A stretch of 64,000 nt of DNA from Patescibacteria group bacterium. GTDB taxonomy: Bacteria; Patescibacteriota; Minisyncoccia; UBA6257; GWB1-50-10. Made by a program: the position numbers and the translations under genes. The DNA lies in NCBI GenBank assembly GCA_023474215.1, contig JAMCYI010000013.1, forward strand, positions 16,168-80,167. The letters run 5' to 3'. Numbering within the stretch: the first letter of the stretch is position 1; each line of letters begins with the position of its first letter. The notes under the pieces are model-generated. The model was not told the DNA's origin. It saw nothing but the letters and a program-made list of their open reading frames with translations, and ran no database searches. This document shows positions 1,213 through 17,762 of this stretch, one piece after another.

Positions 1213-2955
1213 GTGAATCCTGAGAAGAAAACCTGTCAGAATTGTAGCCGAGAATTTACGATTGAACCGGAGGATTTTGCGTTTTATGACAAAATCAAGG
1301 TTCCGCCGCCGACATGGTGTCCCGAATGCCGGATGGTGCGAAGATTGCAGTTCAGAAACGAGCGGACGCTCTATCATTTCATATGCGAACTTTGCGGCGA
1401 GCCGGGCATTTCGATGTACCCGGATACCGCGCCCTTCCCGGTCTACTGCGCGAACTGTTGGTATTCCGACAAATGGGACCAGCTGTCTTATGCTCGCGAT
1501 TACGATTTCTCGCGCCCGTTTTTCGAACAGTGGAAAGACCTTTTCTTTAAAGTCCCCAAGGCGAGTATTTTTCATCGAAATGTTGAAAATGCGAAGTATT
1601 CGAACATTGTCGGGGAAAGCAAAAACCTATATCTCTCTTATTCTTCGACTAAAAATTCCGAGAATGTCTATTATGCCAAGAACATCGATCATTCGACCGA
1701 TGTTTTCGATTGCTTGAATATTGTGGACGTGAACCGATGCTATGGGATCGTTGACGGCACGAAGAACTACAACTCGAAGTTCCTTGTGTCATCGCAAAAT
1801 TGCATGGATTCTTCGTTCTTGTACGATTGCGCCAATTGCCGCAATTGTTTCCTTTCCACCGGCTTGCGGAATAAGGAGTACGTGATACGGAACAAGCAGT
1901 ACGCGAAGGAGGAATATGCGAAAGAAATAAAGAAATTCGATACGGGAAGCTTTTCCGCCGTCGATGCTTTAAAAAAAGAGTTCGCTTCGATGATGGAAAA
2001 AACTCCCCGAAGGTATGCGGTGGTTTTGAAGTCGGTCGATGCGACGGGGGACAATATCGTGAATTCGAAGAACGTTAAGGATTCGTTCGATGTGTACGAT
2101 ATGGAAGATACGCGGTACGTATTCCGGTCTTTCGGCACGAAAGGCGTTTACGACGCCAATAATATAGGCAATTCGGAGCTGATATACGATTTCGCGGGCG
2201 GAGGAGGAATGAATAGTTCCGGGCTGATGTTTTCAAGTAACGGCATACGTGACTTGCGGGATATCCAATATACGGATTACTGCACGACGAGCTCGCATCT
2301 GTTCGGCTGCGCAAGCATGCGGGATAAGCAATACTGCATCTTGAACAAACAATACTCGAAAGAAGAGTATGAAGCGCTCATCCCTAAAATCAAAAAGCAT
2401 ATGAACGATATGCCCTACGCGGATGCAAGAGGGAGGATATATCAATACGGCGAATTCTTTCCGCCGGAAATGTCTTCTTTTGCCTATAACGAGACGATCG
2501 CCCAGGAATACTTTCCTTTGTCGAAAGAGGAAGTGCTCGAGCGCGGATACCGATGGAAAGACCCGGAGGAGAAAAATTATCGGATTACTAAAAAAACCTC
2601 CGACTTGCCGGATCATATTAAAGATGTCGACGATTCGATACTCGAAGAAACGGTGGAATGCGCTCACGGAGGAAGATGCACCGACCAATGCACAAGTGCC
2701 TTCCGGATCGTGCGGGAGGAGTTGGTGCTTTATCGGAAATTCGATTTGCCCTTGCCCCGCCTTTGCCCCAACTGTCGCCATTACGAGCGCCTGAAATTGA
2801 AGAATCCTCTGAAGCTCTGGCACCGCTCCTGTATGTGCGATAAGCCGAACCACGGCCATGCGGGGAAATGTCCCAACGAATTCGAGACCAGCTACGCCCC
2901 GGACCGCCCGGAGATCGTGTATTGCGAGCAGTGCTACAACGCGGAGGTTGTTTAG
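1213..2955 (+). CDS. Cys-rich protein of 580 aa. N- and C-terminal CxxC zinc-ribbon clusters flank an Asn/Asp/Tyr-rich region with ~12-13-aa periodicity (beta-solenoid-like). Function unknown.
   Basis: GTG start follows the stop at 1201. TATAAT sits at 1189-1194. Multiple CxxC...CxxC pairs at both ends. Confidence 0.55.
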   Translation: MNPEKKTCQNCSREFTIEPEDFAFYDKIKVPPPTWCPECRMVRRLQFRNERTLYHFICELCGEPGISMYPDTAPFPVYCANCWYSDKWDQLSYARDYDFSRPFFEQWKDLFFKVPKASIFHRNVENAKYSNIVGESKNLYLSYSSTKNSENVYYAKNIDHSTDVFDCLNIVDVNRCYGIVDGTKNYNSKFLVSSQNCMDSSFLYDCANCRNCFLSTGLRNKEYVIRNKQYAKEEYAKEIKKFDTGSFSAVDALKKEFASMMEKTPRRYAVVLKSVDATGDNIVNSKNVKDSFDVYDMEDTRYVFRSFGTKGVYDANNIGNSELIYDFAGGGGMNSSGLMFSSNGIRDLRDIQYTDYCTTSSHLFGCASMRDKQYCILNKQYSKEEYEALIPKIKKHMNDMPYADARGRIYQYGEFFPPEMSSFAYNETIAQEYFPLSKEEVLERGYRWKDPEEKNYRITKKTSDLPDHIKDVDDSILEETVECAHGGRCTDQCTSAFRIVREELVLYRKFDLPLPRLCPNCRHYERLKLKNPLKLWHRSCMCDKPNHGHAGKCPNEFETSYAPDRPEIVYCEQCYNAEVV

Positions 2956-2956
2956 T

Positions 2957-3044
2957 TATCCCCAGATTTAAAGGCCCCCCGGTCTCCTTGAATTTTTGAG
3001 GGTCCCCCGGAGGCCTTTAATTTTTGAAGGAGAGCGGGGGCAAG
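2957..3044. repeat. GC-rich palindromic intergenic repeat, copy A. Near-identical copy at 43316..43404 and partial copy at 28065..28108.
   Basis: Shared leader ttatccccaga, 14-mer GCCCCCCG[C/G]TCTCC and its inverse, and the AATTTTTGA core. Confidence 0.7.
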
Positions 3045-3083
3045 GATTTGAGAGATACAATCCCGAGGTTATATAATAAATTT

Positions 3084-3404
3084 ATGGAACTCAAAAATCT
3101 GGTTTCCCGCGCTATGGAAGTCCGGGAGAAATACGCAGAACTCGAAAGGAAAAAATATGGCAGGGAATGGAATGAAGCGCAGATTGCGGAAGGATTCGTC
3201 GGAGATGTTGGCGATCTCATGAAGCTCGTCATGGCGAAGGAGGGAATCCGAACAACCGAAGCGGTGGAGGAGAAATTGGAACACGAACTCATGGATTGTT
3301 TGTGGTCAATTTTTGTTCTCTCCAAGAAATTTAACATAGATATCGAAAGTTCTTTCCCCAAAGCGATGGACCAGTTGGAGGAGCGAATAAAAAAAGAATT
3401 ATGA
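3084..3404 (+). CDS. MazG-like nucleoside triphosphate pyrophosphohydrolase (all-alpha NTP-PPase fold).
   Basis: EE/ExxD-type helices (EEKLEHELMDCLW...). TATAAT at 3072-3077 sits just before ATG 3084, suggesting a leaderless start. The TTG at 3024 lies inside the repeat, so the ATG is preferred. Confidence 0.5.
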   Translation: MELKNLVSRAMEVREKYAELERKKYGREWNEAQIAEGFVGDVGDLMKLVMAKEGIRTTEAVEEKLEHELMDCLWSIFVLSKKFNIDIESSFPKAMDQLEERIKKEL

Positions 3405-4213
3405 AGATAGCGCTAGTTGATTTGTGCGGCGCAAAAGATTTCAGAGAGCATAAAAGCTATGTCGATTCCATGGCGTTTCTCGCGGAGGAGGGAATCGACT
3501 TCGAGGATTACGCCTCTGGTTTGACCGGTCTCGACGCAAAGATCGAAGGCCTCAACAAGGCGCTCGCGAGTGATGCCGATCTTGTTTGGGTGATGAGGGG
3601 CGGTTTTATCTGCATCGATACGCTCGATAGAATCGATTGGGAAAAAGTCGTCGCTTCCGGCAAGAAATTTTACGGCCTGAGCGACTTTACCCACTTCTCG
3701 ACGTTCGCTGTCCCGAAAGGAGTTACGTGCTACTACGGCCAGGGCCTGAGCCATATCAAGGAGTTTTTTCCGACAGAGCCCGAAAGAAAATTCATCGCGG
3801 ATTTTTTGAAAACCGGCATTCCCGTATGTACAAGTCCGGAACCGCTGGCTTGTGCAAATGCCGGGCTTGATATAGCGAAGGAAAAGATCATCGGCGGCCA
3901 TCTCCTCATCTTCACTTTAATGGAAAGTCAACTGGAGATCGATTTGAAAGACAGATATTTGTTTCTGGAATATCATACGGGTACGACAGGCAATAACCTT
4001 GAAGAGCTCGGTTATTATTTTGACCAACTGCTGTATGTTCTAAAAAAGAATCTTCCGAAGGGATTCGTTCTCGGCCACACATCCATCAAGGGGGAGGATG
4101 GAAGTTTTATTCCCGTTGAAGTAATCAACGATTTTTGTTCAAAAAAGTTGTCGGCACTAGATTTGCCGGCCTACTATCTCGATCACTACAAAAACATCGT
4201 CACTTTTCGTTAG
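3401..4213 (+). CDS. LD-carboxypeptidase / MccF-like serine peptidase (S66 family).
   Basis: RGG motif (VMRGGF), nucleophile motif GLSDFTH, C-terminal GH. ATGA overlap with the upstream MazG-like ORF. Confidence 0.5.
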   Translation: MKIALVDLCGAKDFREHKSYVDSMAFLAEEGIDFEDYASGLTGLDAKIEGLNKALASDADLVWVMRGGFICIDTLDRIDWEKVVASGKKFYGLSDFTHFSTFAVPKGVTCYYGQGLSHIKEFFPTEPERKFIADFLKTGIPVCTSPEPLACANAGLDIAKEKIIGGHLLIFTLMESQLEIDLKDRYLFLEYHTGTTGNNLEELGYYFDQLLYVLKKNLPKGFVLGHTSIKGEDGSFIPVEVINDFCSKKLSALDLPAYYLDHYKNIVTFR

Positions 4214-4235
4214 GCGTGGTTTAGCCAGTTGCAGA

Positions 4236-4275
4236 TTTAAGGCCTCCCGGGGGCTTCGCACCGGGAGGCACGAAA
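4236..4275 (+). terminator. GC hairpin after the S66 peptidase gene: gcctcccgg / ccgggaggc.
   Basis: 9-bp perfect stem with a 10-nt loop. Confidence 0.35.
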
Positions 4276-4337
4276 GCGAGCCAAGTATCCCCGCGAAGGC
4301 TAAGACTTGGGCGTAGTTCTCGTGATACAATTCTCAT

Positions 4338-4829
4338 ATGGATCAAAAGATCAAAAATGCGGCTACAAATCTCCTGGAATCAACTGATATTTTAAACATC
4401 CTGGCTCAATTCGGCGAAGTGCATATCGTGGGTAGTTACGCATTTGATTTGATGACTGAACCGGATATCGATCTGATCGTTTTGACAAATGAACCTCAAA
4501 GATCATCGGAAGAAGCTCTAGCTTATGTTTCTAAACTTCATCTTTTTCAAAAACTCGAGTACGGGGACTTCCAGAAATTTCCACGGAAAAAGAGACCTCC
4601 TTTCTTCATTTTCAATATGAGAACCCCGTGGGAAGGGGAGTCGTTTGAGATAGAAACTTGGTTTCTACCCGAAGCCGCTGACCAGCTGGCATTCGTCGAA
4701 AAGATGAAAAAGATATCCCCGGAGCAAAAGCAAAAGATCCTCGAACTCAAATTGAAAAGAAAACAATCGGGTGCAAGTAAAGCCGAGCTCTCGTCATTCG
4801 ATATTTACAGAGACGTTCTCGATTTTTAA
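4338..4829 (+). CDS. Minimal nucleotidyltransferase of the Pol-beta superfamily; MNT antitoxin-like or antibiotic nucleotidyltransferase-like.
   Basis: Canonical GS-x9-D-x-D motif (HIVGSYAFDLMTEPDIDL). Extended -10 tgatacaat sits immediately upstream. Confidence 0.6.
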   Translation: MDQKIKNAATNLLESTDILNILAQFGEVHIVGSYAFDLMTEPDIDLIVLTNEPQRSSEEALAYVSKLHLFQKLEYGDFQKFPRKKRPPFFIFNMRTPWEGESFEIETWFLPEAADQLAFVEKMKKISPEQKQKILELKLKRKQSGASKAELSSFDIYRDVLDF

Positions 4830-4906
4830 CTGAGGAAAACCACTACCTCACCGAGAAATTCTAGCCCGCCCCTTGGGAGCCCGCCGAAGAATTCGAAACT
4901 TCGAAA

Positions 4907-4940
4907 TTGATAAAATCGCTAAAAAGTGGTATAGATTCAT
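4907..4940 (+). promoter_or_regulatory. Sigma70-like promoter for the HEPN operon: TTGATA, 17-nt spacer, TATAGA.
   Basis: Motif match. Preceded by a ttcgaaa direct repeat and followed by SD gagggg. Confidence 0.45.
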
Positions 4941-4968
4941 AAATTCGAGGGGTAGTAATGCAACACTG

Positions 4969-5151
4969 ATGTGCATCCTTCGAGATCGGGTTATGGTTCA
5001 TAAACCAGAAATAGAATGGAAGACACCGACAGAATATATTGGCATTCGACCAGGTAGTGTGGGGTTTGAGGAAGATTTTGAAAGCTTTCCCGATCAAAAA
5101 AGATTGAACTGGTTTATTACATCGAACGAGATGCACAGAAATATGCTATGA
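4969..5151 (+). CDS. Small 60-aa protein of unknown function; first gene of the operon.
   Basis: ATG follows SD gagggg. A 3-codon uORF (ATG CAA CAC TGA) overlaps the start as TGATG. Confidence 0.35.
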   Translation: MCILRDRVMVHKPEIEWKTPTEYIGIRPGSVGFEEDFESFPDQKRLNWFITSNEMHRNML

Positions 5152-5219
5152 AGGTTGGGTTATTTACTGGGATACTCATTGGTATCCCCATCGGAATCAT
5201 CTTGGCCTTTGTGGTTTAA
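5148..5219 (+). CDS. 23-aa hydrophobic single-TM peptide MKVGLFTGILIGIPIGIILAFVV; candidate small membrane toxin or regulatory peptide.
   Basis: ATGA start/stop overlap with the upstream ORF. The peptide is entirely hydrophobic. It lies 22 nt upstream of the HEPN gene. Confidence 0.3.
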   Translation: MKVGLFTGILIGIPIGIILAFVV

Positions 5220-5241
5220 TTTGAAAATATCCGTAGCTCCA

Positions 5242-5925
5242 ATGCCTAAAAACTTCTGGGAAAATATCAATTATGAGATTATCGAAGGCTTATCGAAGGG
5301 CTCTTACTCAAAATATAAAAATGGGGATCACATTGGTGCGGCTTTAATAGAGGCAGCTCTGCTAGATGGAAGTCTAAGATTCTCGTTGATAGAAGAATTC
5401 AAACGCGACGGGAAAGTTAAGGATAATGATTTTTTAAAACTTTCCGAGGAAGACAACTTTTACCACCTAATCAAATTTTTCTTGGCTTACACAAAGGATA
5501 AGAAGAACTACAGGAAACTAGATTCTGTTAGAAAAAATAGAAACAAGTTGATACACAACATACCCTACTTTAAGAGCTTGGAGGAACTAGATAATCACGC
5601 CCGCTCTTTGTACGAGGAAATTGCTGAGGTACATTCCCACTTGTTCCATGATTATCTTTCCCTGAGACCTGAAGAATTGGAGGAGAAAATACGACAAATA
5701 ACGCGCGGGGTAGGAGCGGCAGTTCACTTTCAGAAAATTAAAAGCCCAGAAGCCGTTATCGCTCTGTTCCGATGCGACAAATCAAAGTTTGACAATATAG
5801 AGAAAGGACTTCGGCGGAAAGCTCTAGCTGGCTGGCGGTATGAAATACATACCAAGAAGACGGGGAACGATGACTATCAGATAGATTTTTCAAACTTATA
5901 TGGCTATGCATATGGAAAAATATGA
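5242..5925 (+). CDS. HEPN-motif protein A, Abi-like, predicted RNase.
   Basis: R-x4-H motif (SVRKNRNKLIHN). The ORF is open back to TTG 5155, but ATG 5242 is preferred. Confidence 0.45.
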   Translation: MPKNFWENINYEIIEGLSKGSYSKYKNGDHIGAALIEAALLDGSLRFSLIEEFKRDGKVKDNDFLKLSEEDNFYHLIKFFLAYTKDKKNYRKLDSVRKNRNKLIHNIPYFKSLEELDNHARSLYEEIAEVHSHLFHDYLSLRPEELEEKIRQITRGVGAAVHFQKIKSPEAVIALFRCDKSKFDNIEKGLRRKALAGWRYEIHTKKTGNDDYQIDFSNLYGYAYGKI

Positions 5926-6440
5926 ACAAAGAAGAATTCTCAAAACTCATATTATCTGATCCAAGCGAAGCATGGAAAAAAATTAGAAGCGGAGAAATCG
6001 ACATCTCCCACGTAGATTTTAATGTCGTCAAAAAACGAGTTGAAAATAAATTCCTAACCAAGGAACAAATTGAAGCCGTTGAATCTGTATACTGGGCATC
6101 CTATCTAGTCGAGAAAGAGATATCGGATATAATTTCCTCTACAGAAAAAACATTAGGCAATACAGATATAGTTGACGCTATGTTGGGCCGCTTGGCCTTT
6201 GGAGATAAAATCTCGTTGATGGACGAGAGATACAATAAGGGAGGTCAAATTAAGCCATTCATAAGCTTTGCCTGGAGGGTTAACCAATTAAGAAATAACG
6301 TGGCACATGGAAGATTTGGAGATCTTAAGTACGAAGGGCTTGATCTATCTAACAGAAAGGGGCAGTTCAAATTCTTAATTGACCTGATTGGTGCTTTCTC
6401 AAAATCGGTTAAGAATATCCGCATGACACGTGGCACTTAG
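5922..6440 (+). CDS. HEPN-motif protein B, Abi-like, predicted RNase.
   Basis: R-x4-H motif (WRVNQLRNNVAHGRF). ATGA overlap with protein A. Confidence 0.45.
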   Translation: MNKEEFSKLILSDPSEAWKKIRSGEIDISHVDFNVVKKRVENKFLTKEQIEAVESVYWASYLVEKEISDIISSTEKTLGNTDIVDAMLGRLAFGDKISLMDERYNKGGQIKPFISFAWRVNQLRNNVAHGRFGDLKYEGLDLSNRKGQFKFLIDLIGAFSKSVKNIRMTRGT

Positions 6441-6500
6441 AAGTTCTCACGGCGTCAGCTTAGAACAAGTTCCATCACTGGAGTAGTATAATTAATAACG

Positions 6501-6827
6501 ATGAACAGAGATGAGGGGAACATCGGCGGTGGGACGATCCTTATAATAGCCGTCATAGTCCTAGGTTATTTTCTAATACGAGCCAACCAACAAGTTAATA
6601 GCTTAAATAAGGCTCTTTCAATGGCGAACAGCAATATCAGTCAACTGAATCTTGAGATCGATCAGGCAAATTCTGACATCGAAGATCTTAACGGCCAAAT
6701 GTACGACGCCCAGAGTTACGCTTGGAGTGATTATTACACTATGGGTTCTACTCTAGAAAACCTTAATCCCATTGAAGATTCATTTGACACCTTACCAACA
6801 GTCAGTAGTTCTACTTCCAGCCAATAA
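6501..6827 (+). CDS. Small N-terminally membrane-anchored coiled-coil protein.
   Basis: TM helix at residues 12-27 followed by a heptad-like region. Own TATAAT at about 6487. Confidence 0.4.
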   Translation: MNRDEGNIGGGTILIIAVIVLGYFLIRANQQVNSLNKALSMANSNISQLNLEIDQANSDIEDLNGQMYDAQSYAWSDYYTMGSTLENLNPIEDSFDTLPTVSSSTSSQ

Positions 6828-6869
6828 AATACACCGAGGTAGATTCACTCCCAGATTAAATTTATCAAC

Positions 6870-7820
6870 ATGAGAAAGGTAGACATTTTTGAAGAGGAAA
6901 ATTCAATCGTCATAGATGATCAGTACTCTACTGACACCTTCAATTTCTTTCCTAAAGAGAGAAAGTTTGAGGTGAGTTCAAGCACAAAAAATGATGTTTT
7001 TTATAACAACTCAACGGTTGAGTATAAAATTTCTCTCAACCCAATAGAGTTATGGATGAGAACAACAGAACTCTCACACGAGCCACCGCTGGAATACTCG
7101 ATAAAGGACGGCGTCGTACTAGAATCAGAGATTAATAAAAACAAATTCATTCAAAAAGATTGGATAGAACACCTCAAGAAAGAGGTTGAATGGACAAAAA
7201 TTCCATTGCTCAACAACTGCGAAGTAAATCTTTACATTCTTTCTAAACACCCCGAAATTATTTCCAAGGACGATTACAGAAGGATCTTGAGGCAATCTCT
7301 CGAGAAAATAAAGCTCGGCGTTTCCAAGGTCGAAGAAGCCGTCAGGGAAGATAAGTACAGCTTGCAAATTGAGACTACTGAGTGTAGCAAGGGTATATGG
7401 TATCCCGAAAGCGAGGCGGAAAAAAAGGAAAGAAATGAATATTACAAATTAGATGCCGAAAAGCAAAAGAACTCCCCCTATGAGAAAAGGTTTAAATACG
7501 TCAGAGATTTTGAAGACTCTCTTTTCAAGGAAAATTCGCCGAAGTACGTAGGCATATCCGAAGAGGAGTTTAGAGGCAGTGACGAGATAATGAGGCATCT
7601 GCAAAAGCTCCTCGATAAAAAAGAATCAACATCGGAGACTAGTGCCGAACCGAAGATCTCAAAGGCAAATGGGATTATCATCTCATTACTCCTAACCCTC
7701 TTCATTTCGTGGGTTGTTAGTTGGTTTATTGCTATTAACCCATTCCTGATTTTTATACTGGTGGAAATCGTAGCTTTTCTCCAAGGCGTTATTGGCAGCT
7801 GGATAGAGAAACGACTCTAG
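6870..7820 (+). CDS. 316-aa protein with C-terminal double-TM anchor, function unknown. Low GC.
   Basis: Long ORF with two hydrophobic helices at the C-terminus. Confidence 0.4.
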   Translation: MRKVDIFEEENSIVIDDQYSTDTFNFFPKERKFEVSSSTKNDVFYNNSTVEYKISLNPIELWMRTTELSHEPPLEYSIKDGVVLESEINKNKFIQKDWIEHLKKEVEWTKIPLLNNCEVNLYILSKHPEIISKDDYRRILRQSLEKIKLGVSKVEEAVREDKYSLQIETTECSKGIWYPESEAEKKERNEYYKLDAEKQKNSPYEKRFKYVRDFEDSLFKENSPKYVGISEEEFRGSDEIMRHLQKLLDKKESTSETSAEPKISKANGIIISLLLTLFISWVVSWFIAINPFLIFILVEIVAFLQGVIGSWIEKRL

Positions 7821-7902
7821 CGCGTACACAAATTAGTTCGAAAATCGTCCAAAACCCGCAGCAAGCCACCAGGCGAGCCAAGCACCCCGCGAAATCGGGG
7901 CA

Positions 7903-8214
7903 TTGACTAATAACTTAGTACGTTTTATAACAATAGGCCATCCCGGTTTGGCGGGTATGATGATGGACTCATTCGGAGAATCGCAGATAACCAATTTTAC
8001 TCTCTCGAAAGGCATCCTAGCTTTTACCAAGCAGTACCAGAACCGCCCCCCAATCAAATACAAGTTAGAACTAACAACAAGACCGTGGGGTAGTTGGTAC
8101 AAGGGACAATATAATGGCAAGGACTGCAAGAATGGGTTTGCTCATTGCGTGGTGAACGTCGTTGATGAGGAATTTTTCCAGCCCGAGGAACTACCTGCCG
8201 CCTTCAAAAAATAG
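7903..8214 (+). CDS. Hypothetical 103-aa protein.
   Basis: ORF followed by the terminator hairpin at 8239-8275. Confidence 0.3.
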   Translation: MTNNLVRFITIGHPGLAGMMMDSFGESQITNFTLSKGILAFTKQYQNRPPIKYKLELTTRPWGSWYKGQYNGKDCKNGFAHCVVNVVDEEFFQPEELPAAFKK

Positions 8215-8238
8215 CTTCCGGCTTGAAGCTGTATAAAG

Positions 8239-8275
8239 CTTGGGTTCACAGAAATGTGAACCCTCCTTTGTTTTT
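8239..8275 (+). terminator. Rho-independent terminator: gggttcaca-gaaa-tgtgaaccc followed by a T-tract.
   Basis: 9-bp perfect stem plus tcctttgttttt. Confidence 0.6.
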
Positions 8276-8412
8276 ATCAATTCCATGAAGGAGCGGGAGA
8301 ACCTATTCCCGAACGAACATTGCCAGAATGAGCGTTAAAATCACCCGTAACAATGTTTAAATACAAAAAGGTCCACTGTTAAGTAGACCTTTCGGGAATG
8401 CGTGAAGATCAT

Positions 8413-8607
8413 TCACTTACATTCGCAATACTTCTTCATGATCTCCTCAAGGCATTCTTCGCGAGGTTTTATTAATTCGATCATCGAATTAAAAAAGAAA
8501 TTCGCCCTTTGATCGCCAGCTCCATACGCCTCGTCCAGCATCTGTTCGACGATCTTCTTTGAACCTTCGTCCAGAACCAGCTTGTTTGCGACAACTTCGG
8601 CCGACAT
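8413..8607 (-). CDS. Hypothetical 64-aa protein ending ...KKYCECK.
   Basis: ORF with a hairpin plus T-tract terminator downstream on the - strand (8352-8385). Confidence 0.25.
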   Translation of the reverse strand: MSAEVVANKLVLDEGSKKIVEQMLDEAYGAGDQRANFFFNSMIELIKPREECLEEIMKKYCECK

Positions 8608-8738
8608 TCTATCATCTCCATTTTTGATTAGTAAGAGCTGTAGGATTATGCCCAGAGAATAATACCAAAACTAAGCAGTGTCAATGAAAAGGGAGTCGTT
8701 TTCCCCTGAAAAGGATGGTTTGCATAATTATTTCTAGG

Positions 8739-8876
8739 AGGATACCTTATCTTGTGAGAAAACTGTCTCGGAGGCCGAGCGGGCATGGTTGCTCGAAGGG
8801 CAGAGCGAGGCCGAGAGCAAGCGCAAATTCCTCGCCGGGGAATTTGATAGCGTGTTTTCGAGCAGGATAAGGTATC
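8739..8876 (-). repeat. Structured repeat element, copy H: 15-bp inverted repeat flanking a 108-nt GC-rich core that is homologous to the cores at 53310-53422 and 53475-53587.
   Basis: ggataccttatcttg / caggataaggtatcc. The reverse complement of the core aligns to the 53-kb copies (...aaccatgcccgctcgg.ctccg...gttttctca). Confidence 0.55.
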
Positions 8877-8889
8877 CGACGCCCCTCTT

Positions 8890-8916
8890 TTAGCGCTTGA
8901 CACTCCCCAGTGCTAA
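8890..8916 (+). promoter_or_regulatory. CIRCE operator (HrcA site) overlapping the -10 of the hrcA promoter.
   Basis: TTAGCGCTT-N9-CAGTGCTAA versus consensus TTAGCACTC-N9-GAGTGCTAA. TATAAT at 8917-8922. Confidence 0.6.
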
Positions 8917-8933
8917 TATATAATGGTTCCTAC

Positions 8934-15978: not shown

Positions 15979-16245
15979 ATGGAAGATCTCAAAAACGACA
16001 TCGATAAATTGAAGGAACGGGGAAAAGGCTTGCGGCATGACGTGCGCATCAAAACAGCCGGTTACTTGATTGCCGCCTTCGGTCTCGTTGCGGGGCTTGC
16101 GTGGAACAATGCCGTAACGTCGCTCATCAATTACTTGTTTCCGTTTGCGGCAAACACCGTGCTTGCCAAATTCGTCTACGCCGCCTTGATCACGCTTGTG
16201 GTGGTCGTCATCGGAACTTATCTTTCGCGTTTAGCGGAAAAATGA
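15979..16245 (+). CDS. Small membrane protein, 88 aa.
   Basis: Two hydrophobic segments. Confidence 0.35.
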   Translation: MEDLKNDIDKLKERGKGLRHDVRIKTAGYLIAAFGLVAGLAWNNAVTSLINYLFPFAANTVLAKFVYAALITLVVVVIGTYLSRLAEK

Positions 16246-16523
16246 ACAGGATCGTGAAATTTATATTCGGTCTTTTGGAAAAAATCCTGATACTTGCGGA
16301 ATCCCTCTTGGGGGTACGTTTCATTCTGCGGTTTTTGAATGCAAGTTCCGGAGCTGAAGTGGTACGACTTTTTTACTCGCTTACCGACTTCCTCATTGTG
16401 CCGTTTGAGGGGATTTTCCATGAAGTCATTATATTCGGCGGGGTCGTGGACACCGTCATTCTGTCGACTGGTGTCGCGTATGCTCTGATCTTTTTTATCT
16501 TGAAAAAGATATTTGTGAGATAG
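16242..16523 (+). CDS. YggT-family small membrane protein.
   Basis: About 93 aa, two TM helices, VLRFL-like motif. The internal ATG at 16242 is preferred. Confidence 0.4.
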   Translation: MNRIVKFIFGLLEKILILAESLLGVRFILRFLNASSGAEVVRLFYSLTDFLIVPFEGIFHEVIIFGGVVDTVILSTGVAYALIFFILKKIFVR

Positions 16524-16543
16524 AAAATCCTCGATTTTCTTCA

Positions 16544-16990
16544 TTACCATTGAAGAAAGTTTAGAATTTGTAGAATTGCGCTGATTATCGTTGCGATTCC
16601 AGCAAGAATTCCCAGCCAGGTATAAAAAGGGTACCTTTTGAATATCGATAATGATCGATACCCTTCGGATGTAAGAAATATTTCCTTCTGGCCATTAAGG
16701 TAGCCTTCCCCATCTTTTAAAATTGGCTTTATTTTCCCATCGTTAGCCAATAATCGTAGGTTCTCCTCAACGTCATCTTTGGTATATTTGCCTTGTTCTA
16801 TAAATCCCATCTCTATCCAGGTAGTCACATACTCTTTGTGAGCAATACCGTTTTTAAAGGTGCTACTTTTAACTTTCCGACCATTCATATCGACAACGGG
16901 GATTTTCCCGTCATTATAATCAGCGATAAATTTCAATAACTTTTTTTGGAGCGAAGGATTTTCCATAAGAAATTTATTGTATAAAAGCAT
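16544..16990 (-). CDS. Hypothetical protein with C-terminal TM anchor, immediately downstream of the homing endonuclease gene.
   Basis: ORF overlaps the stop of the endonuclease gene by 17 nt. Confidence 0.35.
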   Translation of the reverse strand: MLLYNKFLMENPSLQKKLLKFIADYNDGKIPVVDMNGRKVKSSTFKNGIAHKEYVTTWIEMGFIEQGKYTKDDVEENLRLLANDGKIKPILKDGEGYLNGQKEIFLTSEGYRSLSIFKRYPFYTWLGILAGIATIISAILQILNFLQW

Positions 16991-17675
16991 ACTCCCGCCT
17001 TTTTGTTTTTGAAATGATTTCTACCGCTTTCTGAGCGATTTTTCTTTTTCTCCAGAGGCAGGGGAGATCTTTTCGGTAGTAAATCCACTTGATAAGTTTG
17101 AGGGAATCTCTTTTAGCAAACTGGAGTGCGTACAAAGTAACGTTATGTTCGCCAGCCGGTCCGGTGATTATTATCGAACCAGGCACTTGGATCAAGTATC
17201 GTGTCTTTTGCTGAATCCAATACACAAAAGCATTACTAGCTGAAAATATTCTTATAAAAAGTCTTTGCGTCGAATATATCCTGCCTTTGTACTTGTTGTA
17301 TGAATCGGTGTAAGTACGAATGCATCCATCGCCATCTATGCAGCCCCGCAAGAAATCTCTGAAGAATCTATCCGGCACGTCGATCTTTGCAATCGTGTAA
17401 GATTTCGCCGGAAAGAGGCCTATTTTTAAAAGCCAATTATAGAATTGGACATCGCCGAATTGAACTCGGTAACCTCCTTGCCTTCTGGTATATCCGATTT
17501 TATTTTTTAGGCGCAGGCAATCCCTGAATGTTTTGAGCATGGGGATCTCCGCTGATCTCATGACGATATGCCGGCCGTCGTTGGATAAATTGCCGTCAGT
17601 TGCCAAAAGCCCAACAGCGTAAGCGAGCTTTGGAGTCCATTCAAAATCTACCTTTGGTAGTTTCGGTTTGGGCAT
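16974..17675 (-). CDS. Free-standing double-motif LAGLIDADG homing endonuclease.
   Basis: Two LAGLIDADG motifs (VGLLATDGNL and FLRGCIDGDGCI). The ATG at 17675 lies 3 nt from the tRNA-Leu 3' end. Confidence 0.75.
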   Translation of the reverse strand: MPKPKLPKVDFEWTPKLAYAVGLLATDGNLSNDGRHIVMRSAEIPMLKTFRDCLRLKNKIGYTRRQGGYRVQFGDVQFYNWLLKIGLFPAKSYTIAKIDVPDRFFRDFLRGCIDGDGCIRTYTDSYNKYKGRIYSTQRLFIRIFSASNAFVYWIQQKTRYLIQVPGSIIITGPAGEHNVTLYALQFAKRDSLKLIKWIYYRKDLPCLWRKRKIAQKAVEIISKTKRREYAFIQ

Positions 17676-17678
17676 CAG

Positions 17679-17762
17679 TGCCCGGGGAGGGACTCGAACC
17701 CTCAAGGCCTTACGACCATAGCATTTTGAGTGCTACGCGGGTACCAATTGCGCCACCCGGGC
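17679..17762 (-). tRNA. tRNA-Leu(CAA), class II with long variable arm.
   Basis: Cloverleaf: acceptor GCCCGGG / CCCGGGC, anticodon loop CTCAAAA, T-arm GGTTCGAGTCC. Confidence 0.85.

Follow-up and report, generated by a model that had tools for sequence, protein, structure and literature searches.

A metagenome-assembled genome of the Patescibacteria (candidate phyla radiation, CPR) is the source of the 64-kb stretch of DNA analyzed here, referred to as the window (contig JAMCYI010000013.1 of assembly GCA_023474215.1). Between a nucleotidyltransferase gene and the hrcA-grpE-dnaK-dnaJ operon, the window carries an AT-rich islet of 3.9 kb that contains two overlapping genes for candidate ribonucleases (RNases) of the HEPN superfamily, designated HEPN1 and HEPN2. 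Both proteins are 100% identical to NCBI entries labeled "Patescibacteria group bacterium". All five of the other assemblies of the islet locus are 100% identical to it, and a 465-kb contig of GCA_027423645.1 matches over 14 kb at 100% identity. The features of the region are listed in Table 1. An initial annotation, made from the sequence alone, described a low-GC block flanked by genes of 55–60% GC and suggested that it is a defence or toxin-antitoxin (TA) module. The low GC content is borne out, since GC in the segment 4830–8650 is 40.7% versus 50.0% for the window, and no other stretch of 3.8 kb in the 64 kb (mean 0.500, sd 0.028) is lower. The flanking values are not; the upstream genes (1213–4213) have 44–48% GC, hrcA and grpE 52.5%, and dnaK alone reaches 56%.

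Table 1. Features of the islet and of the adjoining genes (positions in the window).
Feature	Position	Strand	Basis
580-aa Cys-rich protein	1213–2955	+	
MazG-like protein	3024–3404	+	
Peptidase_S66	3401–4213	+	
Nucleotidyltransferase, 163 aa, backbone gene bordering the islet	4338–4829	+	
Lineage-specific low-GC replacement islet, 3.9 kb	4830–8731	no strand	blastn and GC
Putative promoter TTGATA-17-TATAGA	4908–4936	+	sequence present
Three-codon upstream ORF (MQH*)	4958–4969	+	
Hypothetical 60-aa ORF	4969–5151	+	
Hypothetical 23-aa hydrophobic ORF	5148–5219	+	
HEPN1, 227 aa	5242–5925	+	
HEPN2, 172 aa	5922–6440	+	
108-aa transmembrane and coiled-coil protein	6501–6827	+	
316-aa protein, two C-terminal transmembrane helices	6870–7820	+	
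103-aa ORF, last + strand gene of the islet	7903–8214	+	
Terminator-like hairpin with T-run	8242–8263	+	
64-aa ORF inside the islet	8413–8607	−	
hrcA, grpE, dnaK, dnaJ	from about 8934	+	

The borders of the islet are defined by blastn comparison with relatives, in which the sequence aligns at 82–86% identity as far as 4829, does not align at all beyond that point, and aligns at this level once more from about 8732. On the left side, homology ends exactly at the stop codon of the nucleotidyltransferase gene. An AT-rich block exists as first described, but the actual unit is 4830–8731 rather than 4296–6440. In two relatives (L018 and L020), the gene order is conserved as seryl-tRNA synthetase, nucleotidyltransferase, slot, and hrcA-grpE-dnaK-dnaJ. 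The slot is occupied there by His_Phos_1, NUDIX, RNase_T-like, and DNA-alkylation-repair genes, or by unknown genes, and no HEPN genes were found in the slot of either relative. We read the slot, which separates the nucleotidyltransferase gene from the hrcA-grpE-dnaK operon, as variable within this Patescibacteria lineage. The block is not retained with core-like GC in all relatives; it is lineage-specific and low in GC, and both base composition and blastn mark it as an accessory insert.

No mobile-element signatures were found at the ends of the islet, where an integrase, flanking direct repeats, and a tRNA within 9 kb are all missing. A phage origin was also considered and rejected, as IMG/VR contigs contained no relatives of the HEPN1 family, the HEPN2 family, or the 316-aa protein, and there were no meaningful PHROG matches. 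The islet looks like the cargo of a recombination-prone slot more than an integrated element. The GC content of HEPN2-family genes is always 4–11 points below that of their host loci, as expected of horizontally moving genes. Position 4846, which lies 17 nt past the nucleotidyltransferase stop codon, is the break point of two independent metagenome assemblies (contigs L012 and L013 start there), and such breaks would be consistent with a population that is heterogeneous at this junction.

In HEPN proteins, the active site forms where subunits meet. The R-N-x-x-x-H motifs reported in the initial annotation, RNKLIH in HEPN1 (5539–5556, residues 100–105) and RNNVAH in HEPN2 (6291–6308, residues 124–129), are present, and their R and H are invariant in both families. 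HEPN1 consists of an N-terminal HEPN domain (about residues 5–140) and a C-terminal alpha/beta domain (about residues 143–215) that is missing from most homologues; one of these, P0018, has a different C-terminal extension. Just 12 relatives, all distant (23–33% identity), were found among 1.84 billion representatives, and the family alignment, with identities to HEPN1 of 20–32%, has only four invariant columns, two of which are R100 and H105. In an earlier helix, D42-x3-R46 of HEPN1 corresponds to an E-x3-R in most members of the family, which fits the second motif described for HEPN domains (PMC3710099). HEPN2 is a single HEPN-like domain with seven homologues besides the protein of the window, at 60–81% identity, and R124 and H129 are invariant.

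The structure models of both proteins are reasonably confident (pLDDT 77.9 for HEPN1 and 86.2 for HEPN2). In each of them, a long helix (residues 87–105 in HEPN1 and 111–128 in HEPN2) ends on its C-terminal side with the Rx4H motif, and a loop leads from there into the last helix, which is also long. In the HEPN superfamily, the Rx4–6H motif is placed at the end of helix-3 or the start of the loop to helix-4, and its R is typically followed by a polar residue, N, D, or H (PMC3710099). Both proteins show this placement and carry an N after the R. Family alignments and structure models thus support the earlier claim that both large proteins have a HEPN fold with a conserved Rx4H, and we regard the assignment as highly probable for HEPN1 and as quite likely for HEPN2. 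The Rx4H of each protein is predicted to be the metal-independent RNase site of the superfamily.

Profile searches, suggested at the outset for both kinds of protein, recovered NTP_transf_2 on the nucleotidyltransferase (21.3 bits, cut-off 21), but HEPN models only below threshold. Recurrent matches of this kind (E 0.005–0.1) were to HEPN_Cthe2314, HEPN_RiboL-PSP, HEPN_Apea, Abi_C, and CARF_HEPN. NCBIfam gave no matches for HEPN1 or HEPN2, PADLOC-DB v2 gave no significant match for any islet protein (best E 0.0076–0.03), and sequence searches against the PDB with single proteins and profiles gave nothing significant. In one case, the A1 profile aligned its RNKIIH with RNKYAH of HepS, a single-HEPN abortive-infection protein of the Gifsy-1 prophage that forms a tetramer (PMC13043305), at an E of 0.98 that is only suggestive. 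Foldseek matches of HEPN2 were not significant; the two best were nonetheless HEPN toxins. All-helical folds attract many unrelated helical matches. Both families are recognizable only through structure prediction and motif conservation and are invisible to Pfam, NCBIfam, and PADLOC.

The two genes were initially thought to encode the subunits of a heterodimeric HEPN RNase. The families show no detectable relationship (hhalign probability 0.9%), and the possibility that HEPN1 and HEPN2 are paralogues was rejected on this value. Neither family was found beside the other elsewhere, in six HEPN2 contexts and five HEPN1-family contexts. HEPN2 homologues are located behind a helix-turn-helix (HTH) gene and a gene for a 149-aa secreted or transmembrane (TM) protein in L001, behind a homologue of this 149-aa protein alone in L027, and behind a 102-aa TM and zinc-ribbon protein in L014. 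The homologue in L016 overlaps the gene for a 245-aa polytopic membrane protein, and in L005 roughly 500 nt separate the HEPN2 homologue from the nearest upstream gene on the + strand, an interval that in most copies contains a 68-aa gene on the opposite strand. As relatives of HEPN1, the upstream neighbors of HEPN2 homologues were rejected (BLASTP E of about 3 or worse). In L022, a HEPN1-family gene is part of a defence island together with AbiEi/AbiEii, NYN, HicAB, and a type IIG restriction-modification enzyme. The family member in L030 follows a second HEPN-like gene and the gene for a ResIII helicase and precedes a TM-Mrr_cat gene, and the one in L017 is overlapped by a gene of Clp-protease type and has a TM-Mrr_cat gene in its vicinity. 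Further members of this family are on short contigs, without HEPN2. The defence or toxin neighbors of HEPN2 homologues are HEPN_AbiU2 in L027 and NYN in L014. A toxin or defence role, as first proposed, is plausible from these homologue neighborhoods (L022, L030, L027, L017, and L014).

The ATGA overlap of the two genes was a further argument for partnership. Homology among HEPN2 loci starts exactly at the start codon, and the overlap arises from the conserved Met-Asn/Thr start of HEPN2 itself. As it is made by this start and is also seen in L016, where the gene upstream is unrelated, it is no evidence of partnership. By sequence comparison, the histories of HEPN1 and HEPN2 differ, because HEPN2 has homologues at 60–81% identity, whereas no protein exceeds 33% identity to HEPN1. 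The comparative evidence indicates that the two are not an obligate pair, and it argues against a heterodimeric RNase in this sense only. A hetero-oligomer with a composite site, to which each protein would contribute one Rx4H and for which the membrane proteins may be sensors or effectors, is unlikely in our view. It would agree with an ATGA overlap that implies coupled, roughly equimolar synthesis, with the intact RNxxxH of both proteins, with the formation of HEPN active sites at subunit interfaces, as in the HepS tetramer (PMC13043305), and with the recurrence of a homologue of the 316-aa membrane protein near the HEPN2 homologue in L014. Against it, the pairing was seen in one species only, every other HEPN1- or HEPN2-family gene examined is without the other partner, the overlap has the simpler origin given above, and the two families are not detectably related. 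A more elaborate form of this idea, in which a Patescibacteria-specific hetero-oligomeric RNase is gated by the 23-aa, 108-aa, and 316-aa membrane components and constitutes a membrane-coupled two-HEPN abortive-infection system without a described counterpart, is very unlikely.

The nucleotidyltransferase had been taken for the minimal nucleotidyltransferase (MNT) partner of the HEPN proteins. Its gene and motif are as described, with G32-S33-x9-D43-x-D45 encoded at 4431–4472. All 14 members of the family match NTP_transf_2 (best 5e-7), 13 of the 14 match DUF4269, and the G, the S, and both D residues of the motif are kept across the family, which on this sequence evidence is well conserved in Patescibacteria. 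In L018 and L020, orthologues with 84–87% protein identity are found in conserved synteny at this position, with no HEPN genes, and a 70%-identical member (L021) is found in a quite different, HEPN-free context. The low GC content of the gene (41%) is intrinsic, since that of its orthologues in relatives is also 40–41%. A gap of 412 nt, with a possible separate promoter, lies between this gene and HEPN1. The comparison of gene neighborhoods in related genomes thus goes against the initial grouping, with the nucleotidyltransferase and the two HEPN families occurring apart. In none of the HEPN1- or HEPN2-family loci examined does a nucleotidyltransferase directly adjoin the HEPN gene. In L022, an AbiEi/AbiEii pair, of which AbiEii is a toxin of the nucleotidyltransferase type, precedes the HEPN1-family gene by about 3 kb.

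The hallmarks of HepT/MntA, a type VII TA system, are neighboring genes, RX4HXY in the toxin, whose Tyr is the residue AMPylated by MntA, and GSX10DXD in the MNT (PMC7641770). After the Rx4H, the HEPN1 family has H-x-(I/L/V/A) and the HEPN2 family H-(G/Q)-(R/K), so that Tyr at H+2 is found in no member of either family alignment. The nucleotidyltransferase has GSX9DXD, which is one residue shorter, and profile searches of proteins and families gave no DUF86 or NTase_sub_bind matches. A variant HEPN/MNT system, with the upstream nucleotidyltransferase AMPylating one or both HEPN proteins, resembles the locus in its small HEPN RNase-type proteins, in the nearby GS...DxD nucleotidyltransferase upstream on the same strand, and in the presence of HEPN toxins of HEPN/MNT systems among the structural matches. 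Unlike in HepT/MntA, the nucleotidyltransferase is not genetically linked to HEPN genes in relatives and the gene order is not tightly coupled. The HEPN/MNT pairing was rejected on the synteny of orthologues and the missing RX4HXY motif, to which the 412-nt gap, the end of homology exactly at the stop codon, and the missing profile matches add further objections, as the shorter motif may. Comparison at the sequence level largely refutes this reading, and we consider it extremely improbable.

The reading that we prefer, to which we assign a probability of roughly 55%, is a lineage-specific accessory islet in which two independent, self-contained HEPN RNase-type effector genes from two small families are stacked. 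In this species, the slot would hold the AT-rich islet with two overlapping, co-transcribed genes for unrelated HEPN proteins at its core. Each HEPN protein would form its own homo-oligomer, in which juxtaposed Rx4H motifs make an RNase site that is silent until a trigger such as phage infection; once triggered, cleavage of tRNA or mRNA would lead to cell arrest. The two genes would be neighbors by chance, the nucleotidyltransferase would play no part, and the small open reading frames (ORFs) and membrane proteins would be co-resident cargo. Function as a homo-oligomer that is silent until triggered is probable by analogy with HepS (PMC13043305). The comparison favors stacked, independent effectors of a known superfamily over the undescribed variant of an abortive-infection or TA system that was originally suggested.

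Several points weigh against the stacked-effector interpretation. Neither protein has a significant HEPN-family match in Pfam, NCBIfam, or PADLOC, scans of all family members included, and unrelated helical proteins, designed ones among them, are interleaved with the HEPN structural matches. The slot cargo of the relatives is not defence-like, and the slot is therefore no hotspot devoted to defence; no link to phage contigs was found either. The ATGA overlap means that the two proteins are made together, with which an interaction in this genome is compatible. No immunity or antitoxin component was identified in the islet; since a free, constitutively active RNase would be lethal, the silencing mechanism is something that we purely infer.

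The promoter proposed initially, TTGATA-17-TATAGA, is present and is preceded by TGg (extended -10-like), but it fails the criteria of a promoter scan and is not listed by it, and promoter-like sites in the region are not enriched (8 versus 8.8 in shuffles). Four translationally coupled ORFs had also been described. The TGATG overlap of the upstream ORF (MQH*, ATG 4958) with ATG 4969 (junction 4967–4971) and both ATGA overlaps, between the 60-aa and 23-aa ORFs (5148–5151) and between HEPN1 and HEPN2 (5922–5925), were confirmed; the 23-aa ORF and HEPN1 are uncoupled, being 22 nt apart with no Shine-Dalgarno sequence. A GAGGGG sequence precedes the 60-aa ORF, and the start of HEPN1 is fixed at ATG 5242 by the N-termini of its homologues. 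In two assemblies, gene callers report the 60-aa ORF in a 52-aa version that starts at ATG 4993, and in a third assembly they report no gene there. The 23-aa ORF is fully hydrophobic (MKVGLFTGILIGIPIGIILAFVV). Both ORFs are without comparative support because all other assemblies of the locus are 100% identical. The 103-aa ORF is called as 84–85 aa in other assemblies, and neither it nor the 60-aa ORF has family matches in Pfam, PADLOC, NCBIfam, or PHROGs. The terminator-like hairpin at 8242–8263 is the probable end of the + strand transcription unit and suggests that this unit extends from about 4937 to about 8270; the 64-aa ORF on the opposite strand has a terminator-like hairpin of its own (8393–8366).

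A TA-like module, in which one HEPN is the toxin and is neutralized by the other HEPN, the 60-aa protein, the 23-aa peptide, or the 64-aa antisense-strand protein, is distinctly unlikely. No candidate antitoxin is kept with either HEPN family at other loci, the small ORFs are without homologues and only hypothetical as coding sequences, and no antitoxin-type DNA-binding domain was detected with Pfam, PADLOC, or NCBIfam. A type III TA system or noncoding RNA in the 412-nt spacer was considered and rejected. The spacer (4830–5241) contains no tandem repeats, no stable structure (fold z-score −0.75), and no Rfam match, and a type III antitoxin is therefore unsupported.

In the HepS-like class, one HEPN protein senses phage and cleaves tRNA with no antitoxin, and AbiU2 is annotated as a single-protein HEPN abortive-infection effector. 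The modeled architecture of HEPN1 and HEPN2 is compatible with single-protein abortive infection of this type. Unlike HepS, to which no significant sequence relationship was found, the genes here are not on a prophage, the HEPN genes are two different ones arranged in tandem, and HEPN1 is extended by a further domain at its C-terminus. The lactococcal-type HEPN abortive-infection proteins (the AbiA HEPN domain, AbiD/AbiF, AbiU2, and AbiV) differ in that no significant Abi_2, AbiU2, or Abi_C match was obtained here; the reverse-transcriptase/polymerase domain of AbiA is likewise missing from these proteins. A type III TA system of the AbiF/ToxIN kind differs in its repeat RNA, which is not present upstream here.

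Many members of the MtlR family have lost Rx4–6H, and they regulate mannitol operons in gamma-proteobacteria (PMC3710099). HEPN2 differs from the MtlR/YggD family in its invariant RNxxAH and in lying outside any sugar operon. A role as housekeeping or regulatory factors that bind or process RNA, like MtlR, in a plastic part of a small symbiont genome is a very unlikely explanation of the two HEPN proteins. The R and H are invariant here, whereas non-catalytic HEPN proteins usually lose Rx4–6H (PMC3710099). The patchy, AT-rich distribution and the variable, often defence-like contexts are typical of conflict genes.

Patescibacteria genomes are tiny, and families of the HEPN superfamily are known to evolve fast and to be hard to detect. 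To a specialist, the finding of HEPN1 and HEPN2 is unsurprising for this reason. The defence and toxin repertoire of CPR genomes is poorly charted because its proteins escape standard profile models, and adding both families to the HEPN catalogue would improve the annotation of defence islands in these genomes. At 172–227 aa, the proteins are small candidate RNases. The locus is also a cautionary case, as a nucleotidyltransferase encoded beside HEPN genes need not be an MNT antitoxin, a question that can be settled cheaply by comparing synteny.

Downstream of the HEPN genes, the 108-aa protein combines a TM helix at its N-terminus with a coiled coil and a tail rich in Ser, and gives weak architecture-type matches only, for example to the Rz-like spanin phrog_739 (5.6e-5) and FtsL/DivIC. 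The 316-aa protein has no significant family matches in Pfam, PADLOC, NCBIfam, or PHROGs. A homologue of it (37% identity, E 1e-49) is encoded at L014:3431–4342, on a contig unrelated to the window; the HEPN2 homologue follows 1.6 kb downstream, after a small GIY-YIG gene, the NYN gene, and the TM and zinc-ribbon gene. The 316-aa protein is possibly a recurrent neighbor of the HEPN2 family, and this single repeat is only a lead. With the exception of this pair, the downstream membrane proteins of different HEPN2 loci are mutually dissimilar.

Some neighborhoods of the homologues deserve a description of their own. At L030:1141–5403, a 175-aa HEPN-like gene (RNFLMH) is followed by a gene for a 751-aa ResIII/DEAD helicase, the HEPN1-family gene, a 67-aa ORF, and the TM-Mrr_cat nuclease gene, and this segment may be an uncharacterized multi-gene defence module; the 175-aa protein matches the HEPN1 family at an hhalign E of 2e-4. 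In a Saccharibacteria genome (L017:4986–6030), the 3' end of the HEPN1-family gene is overlapped by a 195-aa Clp-protease-family gene (Pfam 1.8e-23). The secreted or TM protein immediately upstream of HEPN2 homologues (L001:5085–5534 and L027:223–738) has a Cys-containing C-terminal domain (...NGCTSS...KCNC.FDYL...). In L001, the HTH gene that accompanies it is of the XRE type, and a small GIY-YIG gene follows the HEPN2 homologue.

Beyond the islet, a CIRCE-like HrcA operator (TTAGCGCTT-N9-CAGTGCTAA) is located at 8890–8924, upstream of hrcA, and matches what we take to be the consensus at 15 of 18 positions. It overlaps a perfect sigma-70 promoter, TTGACA-16-TATAAT (12/12 in the promoter scan). 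The hrcA start is probably ATG 8934, which gives the 233-aa protein called in other assemblies, and not GTG 8910. The hrcA leader (8740–8877) contains an inverted repeat with 24-nt arms that are 83% complementary and 90 nt apart, with no Rfam match; the part of it at 8735–8782 is 92% conserved in L018. Similar GC-rich palindromic elements (TTTAAAGGCC(C/T)CCCGG...) are found between genes at 2967–3022 and 4235–4270. They resemble copies at other intergenic sites of L020, one of which is just upstream of the L020 hrcA, and could be a small dispersed terminator-like or repetitive extragenic palindromic (REP)-like repeat. A second low-GC patch, at 16200–17762 (38.6–39.2% in 1-kb windows), holds a 243-aa ORF (16974–17705, − strand) with LAGLIDADG-like motifs by eye, which adjoins tRNA-Leu(CAA) at 17678–17762, and a 148-aa ORF with a C-terminal TM helix. 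The 580-aa Cys-rich protein has many CxxC pairs and no precomputed Pfam family, and in relatives its DNA is partly conserved and its length variable (532 and 593 aa).

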